Positions 19,480-36,319 of a stretch of DNA of 64,000 bases are shown here, one piece after another. The DNA lies in the NCBI GenBank assembly GCA_013239625.1, contig MU055922.1, forward strand, positions 3,442,439 through 3,506,438, given 5' to 3'. This DNA is from Lama guanicoe (Eukaryota). The notes under the pieces are model-generated. The model did no database searches and was not told where the DNA came from. It saw only the letters and a list, made by a program, of their open reading frames with translations. The translations under genes were made by a program, and so were the position numbers. Numbering within the stretch: position 1 is the first letter of the stretch; the number at the start of each line of letters is the position of its first letter.

Positions 19480-19990
19480 GGCGAGTCGAGCCGCTGATGG
19501 CGTTCGTGATTGGCCGAGGCTGAGAGACCCAGGGGGCGTGGCCAGGCGGCCGGACGCGCCGGGAGGAGCTGCAGGAGGGGGCAGCCGCGGGGGCCGGCGC
19601 TGGAGTCAGGGATTCGGGCTGCAGTTCCCACCTAGCGCTGGATCCGCGGCCGGCCGGCGCACCCCGGCCTGCGCGCGCCGCTGCTCCGGGTCCCCCAGGC
19701 CGAGGCGCCGGCAGCTGCGCGAGGCAGGTGGGGTGGGCAGAGGGAGGTTCGCCGGGCGCGGGCGCCCTGTGCGCGGAGCAGGCGTGAGGCGGCCGGGGGC
19801 CGGGACGCCATGTCCATGGAGGACCCCTTCTTTGTGGTGAAAGGGTGAGTGTCGCCGAGGGCTCCGCTGGAGGAGGAGGTGGCCGTGCTGCATGCCCGCA
19901 CCTCCCCGCTCTCCTCGCTGTAGGGGGAGGGGAGACAAGTAGAGGCTGGTGAGGGGACCGGGGGGACTGGGCTTAGCCTTGAGGGCCATG
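19480..19990 (+). promoter_or_regulatory. CpG island: STX6 promoter and 5'UTR
   Basis: Very GC- and CpG-rich stretch around the STX6 ATG, with an inverted CCAAT box (GATTGG, ~19508) and GC-box-like GGGGCGTGGC (~19533). Confidence 0.88.
19810..19844 (+). CDS. STX6: STX6 coding exon 1 (MSMEDPFFVVKG)
   Basis: gccATGTCCATGGAGGACCCCTTCTTTGTGGTGAAAGG|gtgagt, the syntaxin-6 N-terminus; 35 nt. Confidence 0.97.
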
Positions 19991-23190: not shown

Positions 23191-26100
23191 ACTTCACAGT
23201 ACAGGTAGAATAGGGTCAGGAAGAGGTTCATCTTAAGGCCACTGGAGATTTTTAAAGCAGGGAAATGACATGAGATTAGGGTTTCAGGAGTATTGATTTG
23301 GTAGTAGTGTTGGATGCATCAGTGTGAAGAAAGGCTAAAAAGGAGACCAGTTAGAAAGCTGTTTTGATTTAAATACGCAGTGATTCGTGCCCAAGTGTGT
23401 GAAGCTCGTTTTGTGAGGTTTGACCCTGTCAATACCTTCTTCGTGTTCAGAGCAGGATCCCAGAACACAGGAGAAAACCAGCACAGTTGGGCACCTGGGT
23501 TCTTGGGGCAGATGTGGCCCTGCCTGGCGCAGACATTCGCAGCAGTGCTTCCACTCCCACAACTCCCAGCTCTGCTGAATCACCTCGGGCCTGCCCTTAA
23601 GTTGTCGTTTGTCTAGTTGACGCTATCTTGTGTGTTCTTACCGGGGGAGCCTGATGCTCCCATTGAGTCAGATCCCCCCAGTGTATCTGTGCATACCCCA
23701 TACCCCAGTCACTCGGATCCAACTCTTTCCCGAGTGTTCCTCTGTGTTTTGTGCTAATTACTTGACATTCCCCATACTGTGGGGTGGATATCTTACCTTT
23801 TTCTCTTTTTCTTTTCCTTCCCCCTCTTAGCCCTCCTCACTTCTGACTCTGCACTCCCCTTCAGTCCTGTGTCCCCTAGGTCATCGGGTCCTATCAGTGC
23901 ACCCCCTGGATATGTCTGGAGTCTTCTCTTCCTCTCTGGTTTTGGTTCCTCCACCCTCGTTCTTGTCCTTTCCCACCTGGACTCCTGTCACCGCTGCCAC
24001 ATGTGACCACACAGACACTATCAAGTCATAACTCTGCTGAAATCCTTCATTCTAAAATACTTACCGAGTGTCTGTTTCCTATGTGCCAGGAGCTAAGGGT
24101 ACAGCAGTGAACAACATCCCCGTCCTTATTAAGCTTACATTCTAGGGACAGACAGCAAACAAGTGAACAGATATATGGTGTGTCAGGCGGTGGTAACTCT
24201 TGTAAGAAGAGTAAAGCTGGGTAAAGGAAACGAGTGTTCTGGGTGTAATTTTTCTTTTAATGTGATTTCCAGAGGCAGTGAGGTTTGGTGAAAGAACTGA
24301 GACGATCCGGCTGACCCAAGGTTGGAATCTCATCTCTGTCAATTACTTGGTGTAACTTTTGCCACGTTAATTATCCTCTCTGAACCTGTTTCTTTATGTA
24401 CAAAATTGGCTTAACAATGTCTGCTGTACCAGTTATGAGTTAATTCATGTAAATGGCCACAGCACAGTTTGGGGGCACATATTAAGTGCTCAGTAAACGT
24501 TTTTTAAAAAAAATCTACTTCTGTTTCTCCTAAAAATATCCAAGCTGGCTGCCCTTTCTGAGAGGAAAGACGGTGTCTTACTAGTTTTGGAGGTTGGTTG
24601 GTTGGTTGGTTTTAGAGTAACATTTAAAGTCATATATGCTCATTTTAGAAAACTTAGGAAATAAAACTATTTAAAAAAGAGGATTAAAAATTGATTGCAG
24701 TGCCACCGTCTAGAAATAATTAGTTAAAATGTTGATGTCTTTTTGATCTGTATTTCTACTAGTGATTTTATGTAATACTGTCCATCAATTTCTGATCTCT
24801 TATAGATCAGGCACTGTGCTGAGAACCTAACTGGGATGGTTTTTTTAATCCTATGAAGTAGGTACCAGTTCTATGATTACTATCATTTTACAAAAAAAGA
24901 AAATGAAACTTAGAGAATTAAAAAAAAAAACGCAAACTTCCAAGTTCATAACCTGTAAGTGGAAAGGCCAGGCTTTATATAAATGGGTGTGATTATTATT
25001 AATCATTTAAGAAATTGAGATGATGCTATCTTACAATCTTTTCATCTGTATGTCTTTATATCTTTAAAATGCCTTAGGTGGGGAGGCTTTTTGATGACTT
25101 CCTTGTATTTTGTCATATAAATGTAATATAATTTACCATCCAGGTTGACATTTATGATGTTTCTAACTTTCTCACTATTACAGTTAATATAGTCGCAAGC
25201 CTGCTTGTCACAGGTGTTCGCTGCTGCTTCTGACTATTTCCATAGCCTGTATTCCTGTAGCAGAATTGCTCATTCAGAGGGCATGCACATTTCAAAGCTT
25301 CTGGTGTGTATTACCAAATTGCCCTCCAGGTACACCCCTGTCTCCACTCTGCTCCTCACACCATCACCCCAAAAGTTTGAGGGATCCACTTCCCTCGATC
25401 CCTTGCCAGTACTGAGATTCTCATTTTAAGAAATCTCGACTAATGAGCTAGGTGAAAAAAATGCCATATTTGAATCATGTCCTTTTCATCATTGTGTTCA
25501 GAAAGCACTTACACAGTATTTAATGAGTGAACTCATTCCAGGTATTGGGTTCCATAGTATTTTTCCCCCTCTCTGGTTTACAGCTTCTAATTTGAACAAG
25601 CCATTAAGAAATTGAGCTTTGGAATATGGGAGTATTTCAGTACCACGTGAGCCTCTCCTATAGGTAGAAGGCAAGAATGTTGTGATTCTTTAATGTTTTG
25701 CTGGTTTGGAGGCCTAGTGTCTGAGCAAGGATAGTTTTATTTCCTGGTTCTTGGCTGTGGATCAGTGTTGAAATAATGGGGTAAGTAAGCCGTGAGCAGG
25801 ATGGTATCTGTTACATTGTATTATCTTCTGACCATCTCTGGTCTGCATGTAAAGCCTTTTAAACACTAGATTATGAGCTCCTGGAAGGCAAGCATTGTGC
25901 ATTTTATTCACAATGTTGAGAAACCTTTGTTTATTGCTATAGTCACTGAGAGAAAAAGTTATCCTTGTTATGCACAGTAATTTTATCCAGTAGAATTGAA
26001 TATAGGTCAGATCTCATTTTCTACTTTTTAAAAACCAGTCAGATGTTGCATTGTAAAAGCAACTTTGCAGACATTTGTTACAAATTGATCAAATGCTTCA

Positions 26101-27753
26101 TGCTCTGTTTGGCTCCTGAAATTAAAGTCTGCTTTGGAGAACACTATGCAGGTATGTGAAAGTGTAGCTGAAAGACATTGTGCACTGTGTGTAAGATTTT
26201 GGAAGAGAGCTGAGACGCTGTGGAGATCAAAAAAGCTTGGAAAAGCCCCAGTGGAAATACTGGTCAGGGACACTTTAGGGAAGCAAGTAGGGTCTCAGTC
26301 TGGGCCTTAAAGGAAACGTCTGCTTTTCATGCGCAGGGGTGTGAGGAGTCTTCCTGCTGGGGGAGGGGGCAGGGAGCGAAAGTCTAGAACCAGGAATGAG
26401 AAGAGGGAGGATGGAAAGAAGACCTGCCAACTGAAACAGATTTTGTTTCAGGGAGAAATCGGGTTGGAGATAAAAGTTGGCCAGTTTTAGAGGAGGAGGA
26501 GGCAGTGTGGAGCAGACACCCAGCTGAGGAGTTTAAGTTTAATCTTTCCTGTTGTAAATTCTTAAACAGGAGGCAGTTTTTAACTCGCAGTTTCTACTCA
26601 CTTGCCTGTGGTTAAACAACTTTTAAGGGCTCAGACTCAGGTCTTCTGATTCTGCAAAGAAAATCAGTTTGTCTGGAGACTTTGCAAAGATGGGGTTGAA
26701 TAGGTCTTGGTGCTGGAAGGTGCCTCATACTCTGGGCCAGAAGAGGCTGGCAGCCCAGAGGTCTGAGCCTCTGCTCTCTTACTTGGCTCAGTGAGTGCAG
26801 ACTAGCTATCCTGAAAGTTCCTTCCAGATCTAAAATGCAGTGATTGGGCTTAAGTAGAGGTTGTGCAAGGTGAGAAGTAAGAAGAACAGCCAGACAATGC
26901 TTGTCTAGACAAGTTTCGAATCTTGGAAAATAGTGTCACTATTGACTAAAATGGGGAAGTTAGAGAAAGAAGCAGGGTTTTTTTTCTTTTTTGTTTTATT
27001 TTGTTGTCTGAATGCTTGTTTTTTGTTTTGTTTTGTAAGGAGGATATGATTGGTTTGGCTTTAGACAAATGGAACGATCCTATAGGCAGCTAAAAATAGA
27101 GGAATTAGGCCTGGGGGAGTGGTTAGGGTTGGAAGTGCTGTTGGAGAGTCGTCAGCTTCAAGGGGCCTTTTGAACCTGCCAGTGTTGATGAGCACCTCGA
27201 AGCTATAAAGAGTGCTGAGAAGCCTCGGGACCAGGTGAAGGAAGAAGAAAGAGAAAACTGGTAGAAACTAGAAGAGCACAGTGTCACAAAAACAAGAAAG
27301 TGAGAGTTTCAAGAAAATAAGGCTGTAGTGTCAAGTACATGGGAAATGCAGACGAGTTCAAGTCACCCCTGACCTTGACCTGCAGTGTCATTGGTGGCAG
27401 CAGTGCTGACCCAGGGGAGTTGTGGAAGCAGCAGCAGGCTGAGGTCAAAATTGTGTGTCACTGTAGGTAACTAAGTAAAGACTGCCCCCCACCTCGCCCC
27501 CTGAGGATAATTGCGAAAGATACCACAGTGCAGTTGAATTTGGAAATGGCAGTAAGGTCAAGTGAAAGGCGTGTGTGTTTTTCCCCTTAAGTACAAGCGA
27601 TGTGAGTGTGCAAGTCAAACAGTAAAAAGAGCTCCTCCTCCCCTAGCCTGAGGGATTGGTGGCGGAACAGGTTGATGGGATGTGGGCTGGTGATAGGGCT
27701 GCAGAGGCTTGCACAGCCTGGGCTTTTCAGGTTTCGTAAGTAGAATGAAACCA

Positions 27754-29640
27754 TCTGCCTTCACTAGCCTCTCAGTACATGGATGGAACTGGGACCTCTG
27801 TAAAGAGCCGTGGAGGATGGGTGCTGCCCCGGGTATAGGGATTGAGGCATATTGTGTTTTTTTTCTAAAGATGGCCACCCCAATTACATCCTGTCCCATT
27901 TGCTCTTCTTAAATTGTGAAGCTGGGGTTCTTCTATCAAGCTGGGATCCTCGTTCCTTTCCCTTGAACCTGGGCAGACCTTTGTAACTGCCTCAACTAAC
28001 AGAATGAGGCAGAAATGACACTGCTTGACTCCTGAAGCCTAAATCACAAAAGACAACCAATTCAGCTTCCGCCTGCATCTTTCTGACTTGGGATGCAAGC
28101 CTTGGGAGCCCTGACTTCACGTGTCAGAAGTCCAGCTATACTGAAGCCTCTCTGCTAGAGAGCTCACGTGGAGAGGCCACATAGGGACAGTTACTTACGA
28201 GGAGCACCTGCTCCGACAGCCCCAGCCTGTTGAGGTTTCAGCTGAGACCCCAGACATTGTGGAGTAGGGACAAGCCACCCCTTCTGTGTTCTGCATGAAT
28301 TCCCGACCCACAGAATCCACGCACATGATAAGTGGTTGTTTGATGCCATTAAGTTTGGGGGTAATTGTTACACAGCCGCAGTAACTGGGACAGATACATG
28401 CCAATTCAGAGCCTATCAGTGTGGTCAGAGAAGAAGGGGAAAATCACAAGGCTGAGGGAGGTTGTAGCTACGATCATCCTGCAGTTTTGTTGGCACAACT
28501 GAATTCTGGGAAACAAAAGCTTCCTGATGGCTGAAGTACTTCTTCCTCCCATTTTACTGACAAATTTGGTGACATCTAGATAAGAAAACTTTGATTTTAT
28601 GGGCATCTGGATGTACTGCCTGAAGCCCTCGGGGTTGGCTGGGTTGGTGAGCCCTCCTCCGTGGTGGAACAGACTGGAACACTGCAAAGGAGAGGTTCAG
28701 CTAGCAGTGACCAGGAGTTAGTGCTGGGCTGGCTTCAAAAGCTAACTGGGTTGGTTAGTCTTGCCAGTGTCAACTTTTTATTTATAAGGAATGGAAGAAT
28801 CTGATTTTGACTTTATTTTTGCCAGAAAGATACGTTCTTCAAAGATGTGGATTGTGTTTTCACTTTTGACAGTTGCTTACTGAGAAAGATGGTCTGTGTT
28901 ACAGCTCGTCCCATGGGCATTGGCATGGATTGCGATGAAGGACCTTCATTCTGATGTTCATAGGGAGTTCATATCCATGAGGATACGATGGGTCCCATGA
29001 TTCTGATGGTCCATTTGCTGGACAACAAGGGAAAGAACCTCATCCCTGGTGTTTCCAACCCTGTGACTCTTGTTACCCATGGAATGTATGAAACAAAACT
29101 GACTTTGGAAGCATCTGCAACAGATGTGGGAGCAGAACATCTGCTTGACTGTTGTGGGAGATAGCCATCTCTCTCCTTCAAGGAACTGAAAGATTTCTCT
29201 GGGTCAGGAGCTAAACCTGTACTTCCTAGGAAAACAGTTAGCAGGTTTAGGGTGAAATGGTGTCAGACATGATACCCAAAGCTGTCTGTGAGCAGATTAT
29301 TATTTACCAAGACGTTTGCCAAGCTGAAGAGCTCCATAAAGTCAAGGTATACTCGGCCCCTCATGGGAAGTTCTGGGTGTCAGACTTTAATCATTCCCAT
29401 TATGTAGTTGGAAGAAAAACCTGAAAATGTCTAAACCAAACTCTACAGGGAAAAGAGGCGGGATCTTGTGACTTTGACCTTTCTGGGACCACAGATGAAA
29501 GTGGATCGCCGTTGATTGAGTCATCAGCCACGGCCCCTCGCGGGGTGCAGCAGGCTCCCTTGGGCCAGCTGAGCGCTGGGCACCGGCTGGGGGAGTGGAC
29601 GATGGTGGGCGTGCGGGAAGCGCCTGGCCAGTTCATGCAG
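27754..29640 (+). pseudogene. Processed pseudogene of CNDP2 (cytosolic non-specific dipeptidase, M20A family), interrupted by an MLT1 LTR
   Basis: Collinear intronless motifs with stops and frameshifts: SAFTSL..YMD..WV (27754-27823), IQSLSVWSEKKGKI (from 28404), GKQKLPDG* (28508-28534), YGHLDVLP (28598-28621), GMEES (28788-28802), DTFFKDVD (28829-28852), KDLHS (28938-28952), FSGSGAKPVLPRK (29195-29233), WVSDFNHSHY (29374-29403), VTLTF (29468-29482). The 3' limit is approximate. Confidence 0.9.
27843..28392 (+). mobile_element. ERVL-MaLR solo LTR (MLT1 family)
   Basis: Starts TG..ttctaaagatggccacc and ends ttaagtttgggggtaattgttacacagc..taactgggaCA, typical MLT1 termini. Confidence 0.75.
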
Positions 29641-30830
29641 AAACACCTCCCTTCCCTTTCCTGAGAAAGTAGGTGAAGAAAACTGGATCAGCTCTTTTTC
29701 TGTTAAAACCTTCACAAATCCCAGACAGCTGACTTGGTTACATTCTCCTCTGTCCTGTTCATTGATTTATTTGGACTGCCAGGTGATTCTAAATACTTAG
29801 TCCCAGGTATTTCCAGATAGTTCTGAATTGAGCGGGTTAGAGTCTTGTACATTATGACATGTGTCTTATGTTTCTTGAAACTCTTCAGAAATCCCAAGTT
29901 CTTTTGGATATTCTGGTTACCATGAATATTTGGCTTAAAAATAGGCTTTTGTTTGTGACACAGGTTTTCTCTCCATTCATGCCTACTTTTTTAGGCCAAT
30001 GCTAAGCTAAAATGATAATTTGAAGAAGAAATGTTGGGGGATGCTTTAAACTTTTAAACCATTTGTTGCTGTAACGATAAAATTCCTTGACACACTGCGG
30101 ATTCTGGCTTTCCAAGATCTGAACCATTGCTGACAGTTCCCACCTTTGTGAACCCTTCAGACAGATCTTAGAAATGCAAAATAAGACTACTTTGACTTTC
30201 TTATGTCTATGCTATTAAATGAAAACTAAAAATGAACCCCCTTTTACAAACGAGATTGAGAGTGAAATAAACCAGGTCTCCAGCCAGGCCTGTGGGGGTG
30301 TTGAATGTTATCCTGGGGTTGCTCTGTAGCATTTTTCTAATTCCTGCCATTTCTTTCATTTCTTCTTTAGGACATGCTCAAGTTCTTGCATGCTGAAGAA
30401 CTCTTTGATTTCACTTTGTGCTGCTAGAATTGAATCCACCCACATGCCGCCTTCCCCCTCAAATCTGAGTGCCAGTGCCTTAAGAGTTGTGGTTATGAAA
30501 GTGTGCCTTTTGGATTGCAGGGGGGTTTCAAGATCCTTTCTTAGAGGAGCGCCTCAGCTAAAGATGCTTTTCCTGATAGTACTCAGATGTTATTTGCATT
30601 TTTTTCATCGTGTTGACATTTACCTTGATGGTGCAGAGGCTGTGGCAGATCAAACTGCTGGTGCCTTAGCCTAACTCAGGGCAGTGGCACCAAACCATAC
30701 TGATAGTCACTGTAGTCCTCCCTCACAGTGAAAAAGAGAAAAGAGAGTCGTATTCCCTTAAGAGTGTTCATGAAACAGTTAAAAAAAAACTTATCAAATC
30801 TTGGTTCTCGAGAACACTTTTCCTTACTTT

Positions 30831-31750
30831 ATTAAAGTTATAATTTACTTACAGTAAAATTGACCCTTTTTAGTGTATACTTCTGTGAAATATGACAAAT
30901 GCATATAGTCGGTAACCATCATTGCCACAAATAAGTTACAGGGCAGATCAGTCACCCCTAAAAGTTTCTCTGTGTTCCTTCTAGCCCCTTCCCCCATGCC
31001 CAGCACCCGGCAACTACTGATCTGCCTTGTGTCCCTATAAAGTTCTGCCTTCTCCAGCATGTTACAGAAATGGAATCATACAGTGTGTGGCCTTCTGACT
31101 CTAGCTTCTCACACTTTGCATAATACATTTGAGAGCTGTCCATATTGTTGCATGTATCTGTGCTGTGTTCCTTTTTATTGCTGAGTGGTATTCCATTGTG
31201 CAGGTGTACCACAGTTTGTCCATTCCTTAGTTGAAGAATACTTGGATTGTTTCCCATTTTTGGCCGATATGACTAAAACTAATATAAGAATGTGCAGCTC
31301 GTTGTGTGAACCTGTGTGTTTCTGTGTCACCCTGAAGTGGGGTTGTTGGGTCATATGGTAGGTGTATGTTTTCTACGTTTAATTTTAAGAAATAGTCACA
31401 CTGTTTTCCAAAGTGCCTGTATAGTTTTGCATTCCCACCAGTAATGCATGAGATTTCTGCATGCTCTACTGAGTGGTCAGCACTTGGCATTGTCAGCTGG
31501 TAGGTTCTGAGTTTATAGTGATTTCTCATTGTGGATTTAATTTGCATTTTTCTAAATGACTGATGGTATTGGGCATTTTTTCCTGTCCTTGGTTGTCATT
31601 TGTACGTCATCTTTGGTGAAGTGACTGTTTAGATCTTTTGCCCACTTTTAAATTGGGTTTGTTTTCTTAAGTTTTGAATGTTTTAAAAATATATGTATTT
31701 TAGATACAAGTCATTAATCATGCAAGTAATTCACAAATGTTTTCTCTACT
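30831..31750 (-). mobile_element. Old L1 (L1M) 3' fragment
   Basis: tttttattgctgagtggtattccattgtg, gttgggtcatatggta, ttttgcattcccaccagtaatg, gatttaatttgcattt: antisense L1 ORF2/3'UTR. Confidence 0.85.
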
Positions 31751-32726
31751 TGTAATTGTGATTGATTGTAATACTCTACATGATGAAATGAGAGTGTCCA
31801 TCGTGAGACAAGGTGTCTGACTCCAGGGAAAGCCCTTCTGTGATGGAGTTGCGAGCTGAAATAGCTCATTTTTTCCTCCACGGAATCTCATTTTTTTTCT
31901 TTAAAGAATCACTGGCAGGCTGGCTGTTGAGACTCGCTTATGTTCTCAAATCTCAGAATTATCTAAACAATACTTGGAATTTTCTCAAAAAATGAGGTGA
32001 ACCTGTCACTTCTTGGGAAACAACTATTTTTTTGTGGATGATGAAATTAGAATCTTTTTTTTAAAAAAGCAGAATTTTGTAAAGCTTATTCCAACTACTG
32101 TCGTCTTACAGATTCACAGTAGTTAACTTTTTCTGATAATGAGATTGGTGGTGGTATTGTCATATGATTTTGGATATTGTATAATAAAATGAGTCAGTAT
32201 TTGGAAGACCTCTGATACTCATAAGCCAGTACTTTATAAATGAGCAGTACATGAAGTTATAAAATCACACGTGGGTAAAAGATCCGTTCGGAACACAAGA
32301 TAGAGCAATGGGTTGTAATGTATGAGAGTTTGCAGTCTTTGGTACAGTTTCAGCTTCCACACTGCAACTAACCTTTAAGAAATGGCCCCTTTTGAGTTTT
32401 GGTAGAGTGTCAAGAAAGAAGATCCATAATTATCTGAAAAGACTATTAAAATACTCCTTGCTTTCCCAACTATGTATGTATGAGGCTGGATTTCCATTGT
32501 ATACTTTAACCAAAACCTGTGTGTCAGCAGGCTGAATGTGGACACAGACATGAGAAACCACCTCTTTACTATTAAACCGGATATTAAAGAGATTTGCAAA
32601 AATCTGAAACAGTACCACTTCTTTTGTTTTAGAAATTTTTTCAAAAACAGTAACATATAATAATTTCATTGTTATGCTTGATTAGTTGATGCATTTTTTT
32701 GAGCATTTTGATTCTCTAAGGAGTCT

Positions 32727-32931
32727 ACTTTTTTTTTATTGAAGTATAATCGGTTTATAATGTGTTAATTTCTGGTGTACAGTATAGTGATTCAGTTATA
32801 CATACATATTCCTTTTCATATTCTTTTTCATTATAGGCTATTACAAGCTACTGAATATAGTTCCCTGTGCTGTACAGTAGGACCTTGTTTATTTTATATA
32901 TAGTAGTTAGTATCTGCAAATCTCGAACCCC
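32727..32931 (-). mobile_element. 5'-truncated L1 3' end (younger family)
   Basis: Poly-T followed by attgaagtataat..tttctggtgtacag..atagttccctgtgc. Confidence 0.75.
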
Positions 32932-34429
32932 CAGTGTCTGTTTGAATGTCTAATATGGTAAATGGCAATAAACAACCCACATCTGTCTAAGTTCTTTGGG
33001 GTTCCTTTACAGAGTTAATAAGTTTTATATTCTTCAGAACGAAATACCATTATAGAATCCTCTGTAACTTTGTCTTCTGTTATCGTAGACGATATTCAAC
33101 ACTTAGGAATAAACCAAGCACCTCACATTATGGGAAAATGTACACCTCTTTACCAAATCAGCCAGACACCTCAACAAAGAGTAAAAAGAGTAAAACGTAG
33201 TGGATTTACGTGTCACTTACTTAGGCCTTCCTTTTTTTGCCTCATATGGAGTTTCTCTTTAGCACTGAAAGCACAAGGCTGATGTGAGAGAAACAAGGAG
33301 GGGGCTTGCCTAACCCAGGAGCTGGGTGTGAACATACCTCGGGAGAGTCCTTGGGGGTCATACACTCAGTGCTTTATTCCGCTTGGCCCAGTGACTATAT
33401 TCTCTGTCTAACACTTGGCTTTTCAGCTCTCATCAGTCTCCACAGTCCAAGGTATTGTAAGTCCCCTTTCTTCATTTTGCTAATGCTGTCTCTTCTGTAC
33501 TCGAAATGTCACAGGGAGTAGGGTGGATGCAGTTACTCCTTTAAAGACAACAAGCACCTGATTGAACACCCAGAAGAATTGGTTAAGAAATCACAGATCA
33601 AAACAGATCTCTTATAATCTTTGTACACAAGAGGCTATGACTATAAAATGACACCTTTTTGGCTGTTATATGTAGTAATGCTAGATTATAGCATTTAAAT
33701 AGTGGGTATTGGTCCAGTGGAGGGGAAGGGGAAGTTTTTAAGGCCTTTTGACTGTATCTGATCTAAAAGCATAATAAACCATAGCACTTAATGGCCTAGT
33801 CTCACTCTCTACCCATGAAACTCACTAATCTGCTATACAGAGTCACTTAATCCAGGGAAGTAGATATATTTAAAGCTAATAATGTTTGGAAATCTTCTAA
33901 TGAGATTTTGGATTTTAAAATGTCTCAGATTAAAATACTTATCTTCTAAAAGACTAACTGTGTAAGAGTGACCCTTCCCCACCCTTTTTACCCCCCCTTC
34001 CTACACCAGCCTCCCCAAGAAAAGGAAAGCTGTATTAGGGCTTTTTCATCTGAACACAAATTATTTCACCCGAAGTGGCAATGTATGTGCATGTTAAGAG
34101 CCCTTTAGTTAATTTGTATTATAGCTTCTTATACTACTTTTAAGTATAGTCTGTTCAGAGAAAAATTTGTCCTCAAACTTTATATCATAGCTGCTTAATA
34201 ATGGCTGTTTTATTTTAAAATCAGCTGAGAACATAATACTGAGACTATTATTTTAAAGTGTTGAACTTCGGTGTTTGTCCATGAAGAGCCTTCTATAACG
34301 ACTCAGACACTTCTGGGAATGGTGGTTCCTGAGGGTGGTGTCTGATCAGAAAGGTTTACTTAAGTCCTGCGCTAAGTTGTTCATGGAACGTGTCTGTGGT
34401 TTCTCTCCTTTCCCTTCGCCTGACTACAG

Positions 34430-34599
34430 AGAGGTACAGAAGGCAGTCAACACCGCGCAGGGGTTGTTTCAGAGATGGACGGAGCTCCTCCAGGACCCCT
34501 CCACAGCCACGAGGGAGGAAATCGACTGGACCACCAACGAGCTGAGAAACAACCTCCGGAGCATAGAGTGGGATCTAGAGGACCTTGATGAAACCATCA
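34430..34599 (+). CDS. STX6: STX6 exon 2 (Habc domain)
   Basis: cag|A GAG GTA... reads [56 protein letters not shown]; 170 nt; ends at the U12 donor |ATATCCTTTT. Confidence 0.97.
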
Positions 34600-36319
34600 A
34601 TATCCTTTTCTGTGGTGTCTCTGCTGTGCGAGGCAGACAAATGAACATGTTTTTTTGTCCCGATCTCTCAAGTACACGGATTCGACATTTCCTTTTTGTC
34701 ATCGATTGATGTTGCTCCTATTTGTACCGTGACACACTTAAAATAGGTGCCCAGTAAGCTAAGATAGGGTTGCCAAATTCCACAATATCCCGCGACATAG
34801 AGGAGGCGTGGCATGACGGTTATCTTGAACTTGGATCCTGGACCCTGAAGTCAGACTGGGTGTTCAAGTCCTGGCCCTGCCAGTTACTGAGTGACTTCGG
34901 GCCATTGCTCTCCAGTTTCCTCTTCAGTAGAAAATCAGGGTGACAGTTGTACCTAGTTCATAGGGTTGTTGAAAAGTTTGACAGGAACGATGCCTTGGGC
35001 CAGTGAGCCTCTTTGAAAGTGATAGCAGACATTATTACGGAGCGGTATAGACACCAGTGTTCTACAGTGGTGATTAGAGGTCAAAAGAAAGTCCTTTTCC
35101 AGGTGTTTTCCTGTTCAGGAAGTGGCGTTGCAGTGTCCCTGTCCGCTGGAGAGGCGTCTGTGCCGTGAAGGTGCGCTCCCCGCAGCGGGGCTGTCGTGCT
35201 AAGCCATGCTGTTGGTTTTGACTAAATCCACCGACCTGCCTGATGAAGCCGAGAACTGTAAAAGCTGAGTTATTTGGCCTTTTTTTCAACTGGAAAAATC
35301 CCATTTAGCCAACTTTAGATTGAAGATATGCCAGATGCATGTTCTAAGTTCTGTTTGGTTTTTTTTCTTTTCTAAGTGTGGTAAAACATCACAGAAACCA
35401 GCTTTTGTCAGGATCCCTCTGTAGTCAGCACACAGGTTCATATGCAGTTGATGTGTGGAATGTAGCGTTTCTATTAATCATAATGACCCCGAGGTACCTT
35501 TTAAATTATTAAAAAAACAAATATGTTCTCTAAAATCAGTGAAACAAAATATGTGAGGGGGTGGGATCAAAAGCAGAGTTGCAGGGGGATATGTCTTCCC
35601 TTGAGATAGGAGGGAAGAGAAGAAGATTGAAGGAGATGAGAGAAATTGTGAGATAAAGGGGACAAAAGTTCACCGAGCTAATAGTTACTGAGTGCTTTGT
35701 GCTGGACGTTTTGTTGGTTACTGAGGTTGGACTGGTAAGCAAAACTACCAACTCCCGTGGAATTTATGGTGGGGGTAGAATGGGGGTTGGGGGTGGGAGA
35801 GCAGACATCAAATAATAGCACAAATGTGTACTTGCAGACTATGAGAGAAAAGTAGAGAGAGCTATGTGAGGGACATGGGGCGGCAGAACCAGGCTGGAGG
35901 GCGGGAGCGCAGGAAGCTTCACTGAAGAAGCCTTGATTTCTAAGATGCAGAGTTAGCTTCTTGACGGAGATGAAATGGTTTGGAATGACAGATGAAAATG
36001 GCTTGCAAAAGCCGCCATGGGAAAGGTGACCTGAAGTCAAAAAAGTGCTGACAGGCATCTGGAAGAGCCCAGCTCAGCTGTGGTCAGACACCGTGGGTTT
36101 GTAGTGAACCAGGCAGGTCGTCTCTGCCTCGGAGTGCACGGATCCCCATCTAGCTGTGGGCCGAACAAGTCTGAGAATGATTAGTGTCAGGCTGACTGTG
36201 TGTTCAGAAATGCTGGACCAGATTTTACTGCTTACCTGTGAGAGACCCTGTGGTTTAACATCATGTTGGTTGTTAGTCTTTTGATGATGAAATTGCTTTA
36301 CCTTGACTTTTTGACCCAC
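34600..36319 (+). other. U12-type (minor spliceosome) AT-AC intron, STX6 intron 2
   Basis: 5' end ATATCCTTTT, branch site ACCTTGAC at 36300-36307, 3' end ...CCCAC. Splicing here keeps the frame (A+GC = Ser). Confidence 0.95.

Follow-up and report, generated by a model that had tools for sequence, protein, structure and literature searches.

Intron 1 of STX6 in Lama guanicoe holds an old processed pseudogene of the dipeptidase gene CNDP2, a fossil of a kind typical of mammals. Its main body occupies positions 28399..29528 (+ strand) of the window, by which we mean the whole stretch of DNA analyzed (64,000 nucleotides), and corresponds to bases 77-1319 of the CNDP2 coding sequence without introns 2-9, with 754 of 1109 bases identical. 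We hold with considerable confidence that this broken copy derives from a spliced mRNA, likely reverse-transcribed by LINE-1 enzymes in germ cells of an early placental ancestor, and that it has likely been functionless since.

Location, parentage and intron loss

The host gene was identified from its first two coding exons. STX6 coding exon 1 runs from the start codon to a GT donor at 19810..19844 (+), as judged from its translation and donor, and exon 2 (34430..34599, +) follows an AG acceptor. All 56 of 56 exon 2 residues are the same as in syntaxin-6 chain 4j2c_A, and the exon matches Pfam PF09177 (E 2.8e-17). The retrocopy therefore lies within STX6 intron 1 in sense orientation, as the preliminary description had claimed. 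No tandem repeats were found in window positions 24000-34500. As a separate observation, STX6 intron 2 (window 34600-36318) starts with ATATCCTTTT and ends with AC, as do introns of the U12 (AT-AC) type that the minor spliceosome removes. STX6 is named once in the available part of a paper on U12 introns (PMC2831892), and intron 2 is probably already known to be of this type.

Aligned to the spliced parental coding sequence (1428 bases), 28399-29528 gives one collinear match over bases 77-1319 with a DNA score of 408, against a maximum of 34 both for 200 shuffles and for 76 other stretches of the window. The CNDP1 coding sequence scores 32 against the same copy. In the frameshift-aware protein alignment that the preliminary description had proposed for both dipeptidases, CNDP2 scores 503 and CNDP1 scores 180 (100 shuffles, maximum 46; reverse strand, 35), so that its preference for CNDP2 holds at both the DNA and the protein level. 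All 13 groups of motifs that it had read by eye were recovered in the order given, spread over the three + frames from 28404 to about 29480. The best PDB matches of a stop-free fragment (28595-28801) are two chains of cytosolic non-specific dipeptidase (E 7.8e-8 and 1.3e-7), followed by beta-Ala-His dipeptidase (E 1.9e-5). A Pfam search of three read-through frames returned nothing, with one fragment at E 0.11. CNDP2, also known as carnosinase CN2, belongs to the M20 family (PF01546, PF07687; PMC6271292). Taken at the level of sequence, these comparisons support CNDP2 rather than CNDP1 as the parent.

When the guanaco genome was searched with the DNA of the copy, one other match was returned, on contig C4972, and this is the parent gene. 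Parental CNDP2 has 11 coding exons with AG/GT borders except for one GC donor, keeps an open frame of 475 codons, is adjoined by CNDP1, and is 99% identical in exon 5 to Camelus CNDP2. The GC donor, in place of GT, belongs to coding intron 8 (G000:C4972:751289-751290, L006). The copy lies on a different contig (C6462), away from its parent.

The copy is collinear with the spliced mRNA, and the parental introns are gone. Within the main block, 1243 coding bases are represented in 1130 window bases, while the eight parental introns of the same span amount to 10,629 bases. The spliced form is clearly the best fit at junctions 2, 3, 6, 8 and 9 (five of eight), and junctions 4, 5 and 7 (three of eight) are too decayed to tell spliced from unspliced. 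None of the 10 introns of the parental coding region matches the copy region (scores 27-35). The preliminary description had called the stretch an intronless processed pseudogene over most of the coding sequence, and had named as its check a collinear match that crosses parental junctions without introns. Both points stand: the copy spans coding bases 4-1319 of 1428, though without the open frame of the enzyme gene, and the spliced form is recovered at the five junctions above and at junction 1, with eight introns absent.

The inserted repeat and the two ends of the copy

Near codon 26 the copy is interrupted by a dispersed, LTR-like repeat of 550 bp with TG...CA ends (27843..28392, +). Genome-wide it has 41 matches, itself among them, and the rest are 71-88% identical. 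Among 29 other copies aligned to it, none reaches left of 27843, five stop exactly at 28392, and one covers the entire interval. Ten long alignments have a mean identity of 0.69, corresponding to K = 0.40 (SD 0.05). The insert thus shows the traits of a solo LTR, being dispersed, several hundred base pairs long and sharply bounded by TG...CA. It may be an MLT1/MaLR solo LTR, a name assigned from the look of the sequence and not from a repeat library. It resembles MLT1 (ERVL-MaLR) solo LTRs in its dispersal, its ends and its old divergence, but no clear target duplication was found (the five bases on each side differ, and the repeat is bordered by 19 unaligned bases on one side and 6 on the other). 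According to the parts available of PMC3836709 and PMC5753468, subtypes of MLT1 were already active when the mammals had yet to radiate, and the former dates examples to at least 90-98 million years.

Upstream of the repeat, a short 5' piece (27754..27823, +) matches coding bases 4-78 across coding junction 1 with a score of 31, a value reached by none of 300 shuffles (maximum 30) and none of 1602 real 150-nt stretches (maximum 26). At junction 1 the spliced form scores 31 and the unspliced form 9. With a longer query that included the 5' UTR, 6 of 952 controls also reached 31, which makes the match modest by itself, and we accept it because its coding coordinates abut those of the main block. 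Joining the two brings no gain in local score (38 versus 38), since the repeat is flanked by unaligned bases. Of the extent first claimed for the copy, 27754-29640, the alignable part ends at 29528, and the 27843-28392 interval is repeat, not CNDP2; the preliminary description had mentioned neither this repeat nor the other CNDP2 copies in the genome.

A 29-nt match between 27631-27659 and the DNA that precedes the parent gene was considered as a remnant of the 5' UTR and judged unproven; its score was reached by 0 of 30 shuffles in one test and 1 of 300 in another. The matched parental sequence falls about 270 bases before the non-coding exon that a younger CNDP2 copy (see below) delimits, and the joined UTR did not align.

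At the other end, the last 109 coding bases (1320-1428) and the 3' UTR gave alignment scores no better than background. No poly(A) tail was found at the copy, whose 3' end is itself undetectable, so that a tail has no placeable site. A search for a target-site duplication of the copy returned 18 overlapping pairs of 12-mers with two mismatches and none better, and genome searches with 29500-29760 and 27000-27760 returned only self-matches. Directly after the last alignable CNDP2 base lies a GC- and CpG-richer patch (29529-29650) that is single-copy and does not align to the 3' end of the parent.

LINE-1 is the standard route for retrocopies according to the available text of PMC4772013. Like the LINE-1 processed pseudogenes treated there, the STX6 copy is intronless, away from its parent and disabled; it differs from them in lacking a visible poly(A) tail or target duplication and in being split by an old repeat. 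We propose that, in an early placental ancestor, LINE-1 enzymes active in the germ line reverse-transcribed a spliced CNDP2 mRNA into STX6 intron 1. Presumably the new copy lacked a promoter and was decaying as soon as it arose; an LTR element would have landed in it afterwards, and its 3' end was deleted or eroded. Today the copy would be removed together with the STX6 intron and do nothing.

Decay, possible roles and other CNDP2 copies

The many stops and frameshifts noted earlier are borne out by the alignment of the main block, which holds 47 indels, 37 of them frameshifting, and five further stops among 337 readable codons. The longest ATG-started + frame within 27600-29800 is 58 amino acids, and no intact reading frame is left. 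Three of 53 parental CpGs are kept, and GC3 has fallen to 0.49 from 0.79 in the parent. The metal ligands of CNDP2 are given as His99, Asp132, Glu167, Asp195 and His445 in the part available of PMC6271292. Codons for three of the five are kept in the copy; Asp132 reads Ser beside an indel, a reading that depends on the alignment, and His445 falls in the missing 3' end. Judged by these features, namely no open frame, one ligand altered and one missing, the copy cannot encode the enzyme, and it has likely been functionless since insertion.

The copy is a real part of the genome, and related animals have it too. At least 0.90 of its words (0.90-1.00) are present in 14 of the 24 sequencing runs listed, under five organism codes; nine of the 14 carry a flag as possible sources, and a tenth was made from a flagged sample. 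With the remaining four runs, from three studies, this argues that the copy is not an assembly artefact. Four runs recorded as RNA (two studies) hold 0.33-0.34 of the words of the stretch, a fifth holds 0.13, and one run guessed to be RNA holds 0.31. These shares were set aside as evidence of expression, as they carry no placement on the stretch and do not distinguish pre-mRNA or DNA carry-over. When proteins were searched for annotated products that orthologous copies might have, 0 of 171 candidates matched at E 0.001, which is weak evidence.

A dead protein gene could still serve at the RNA or regulatory level, for example in an LTR-driven or STX6-chimeric transcript. The copy is sense to STX6 and holds an LTR-like repeat; chimeric transcripts can arise from retrocopies within introns, with 13 cases in human and 14 in mouse in the available text of PMC4772013, and MLT1 elements can act as promoters according to the part available of PMC3836709. 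Positions 29401-29600 also hold 8 CpGs against 0-4 in each of the 17 other 200-nt bins. Such cases are, however, rare among the several thousand retrocopies per genome (PMC4772013, in the same available text), and we consider a use of this kind quite unlikely.

It is very unlikely that the copy was once a retrogene serving as a second, working CNDP2 and decayed only later. Codons for His99, Glu166, Glu167, Asp195 and His228 are kept, and divergence from the parent is lower at first and second codon positions (K = 0.34 and 0.28) than at third positions (0.75). The excess at third positions is, however, expected from synonymous change in the parent itself, and the other two long CNDP2 copies show it likewise. 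Five kept codons are unremarkable in a copy in which 174 of 337 readable codons still give the parental residue (52% amino-acid identity). Invariance was scored over 53 vertebrate CNDP2 proteins, which share 253 invariant positions, and second-position differences between copy and parent occur in 50 of 194 codons for invariant residues and in 34 of 143 codons for variable ones. Invariant residues have thus changed as often as variable ones, and no protein selection is seen.

The copy had also been described as hidden, which it is not: a plain search with the camel CNDP2 protein yields 29 matches in the genome, of which this copy is the third best (E 1.1e-31), and brings up three other CNDP2-derived stretches. 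The first of these, at G000:C1339 about 6330.4-6332.6 kb (L044:3950-6050), is a younger, full-length processed pseudogene, 84% identical to the parent across 10 junctions, with a spliced 5' UTR exon, a 3' UTR and poly(A), and it places the non-coding first exon of the parent at about C4972:736841-736886. The second, an old processed pseudogene at G000:C3348 about 4237.6-4238.7 kb (L045:3557-4748), is 64% identical over coding bases 25-1302 and has 11 stops in 344 readable codons. The third is a CNDP-like fragment of 103 nt on the minus strand (G000:C747:1583088-1583243, L046) that crosses one exon junction and whose parent is uncertain (CNDP2 61 versus CNDP1 47). All three are intronless and frameshifted like the STX6 copy, and that on C3348 is of similar age. 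The C1339 copy, in contrast, is much younger and complete with UTRs and poly(A), and the C747 stretch is a mere fragment. Pairwise comparison of the STX6 copy with the three other loci found similarity in the coding sequence and in short scattered stretches in either orientation, and no collinear flanks in common; the CNDP2 copies therefore look like separate insertions. Although further CNDP2-derived stretches exist in the genome and neither poly(A) nor a target duplication is visible, it is extremely unlikely that the copy arose by DNA-level duplication, whether from the parent gene or from a different CNDP2 retrocopy, given that no parental intron matches and that no collinear flanks are shared with the other loci.

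Age, phylogenetic placement and significance

For a processed pseudogene of CNDP2, the STX6 copy is far from recent. Its second-position divergence (K = 0.28) compares with 0.10 in the younger, poly(A)-bearing C1339 copy and 0.34 in the C3348 copy. Neutral sites change at about 2-3 substitutions per billion site-years, and on this rate the divergence would put the copy very roughly 90-140 million years back. In the available text of PMC4772013, most retrocopies have a dS of about 0.1, and by comparison the STX6 copy, with a third-position K of 0.75 and a second-position K of 0.28, is older. If the insert is indeed an MLT1 element, the copy predates a class of elements described as active ahead of the radiation of mammals. 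The word ancient in the preliminary description is thus upheld by the divergence of the copy and by the nested old repeat, even if the age is not exact. These lines of evidence suggest that the copy is likely older than the placental orders, and we think it fairly probable that it was in place before Laurasiatheria and Euarchontoglires separated.

Individual residues are consistent with an early origin. At 10 sites the camelid parent departs from other placentals; four of these are readable in the copy, all four with the older residue, and six are unreadable. Sixteen sites split placentals from the majority of other amniotes, and of the eight that are readable, four have the placental residue, two (138, and 347, which is variable) have the non-placental residue, and two have neither. 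Placental residues are found at 337, 355 and 362. The copy has Leu138, a position at which all 32 placentals with data (which include no xenarthran) have Ala and all 17 non-placentals have Leu, and its Lys369 is the state of marsupials and monotremes. The position of the copy in the tree is not fixed, as the two methods disagree: FastTree (57 rows) places it inside Laurasiatheria, and IQ-TREE (25 rows, namely the copy, its parent and 23 of the 53 proteins) has it branch off outside the starred placental clade with a branch length of 2.88. AU tests do not reject a grouping with camelids (p 0.39) or with cetartiodactyls (p 0.39). It is less likely, though possible, that the copy was made on the stem lineage before the living placentals diverged; it would then record an intermediate CNDP2.

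No publication on the copy appears among the literature matches listed, as far as their titles and the starts of their abstracts go, and none of the listed matches has both gene names, STX6 and CNDP2; Table S1 of PMC4772013 may list an orthologue. By itself the copy matters little, being one more old processed pseudogene among the thousands in each genome (several thousand are annotated per therian genome in the available text of PMC4772013). As a case it shows that decayed retrocopies can be read by eye. Its presence or absence could be of modest use as a marker for deep branches of the mammalian tree, and the three long CNDP2 copies, of two ages and one with a nested repeat, could provide a yardstick of the neutral rate. 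The copy is possibly a fossil of a stem-placental enzyme. If a stem-placental origin were true, this would be an overlooked insertion common to all placentals, present in intron 1 of human STX6 as well, and the copy would order substitutions in CNDP2 along the eutherian stem.
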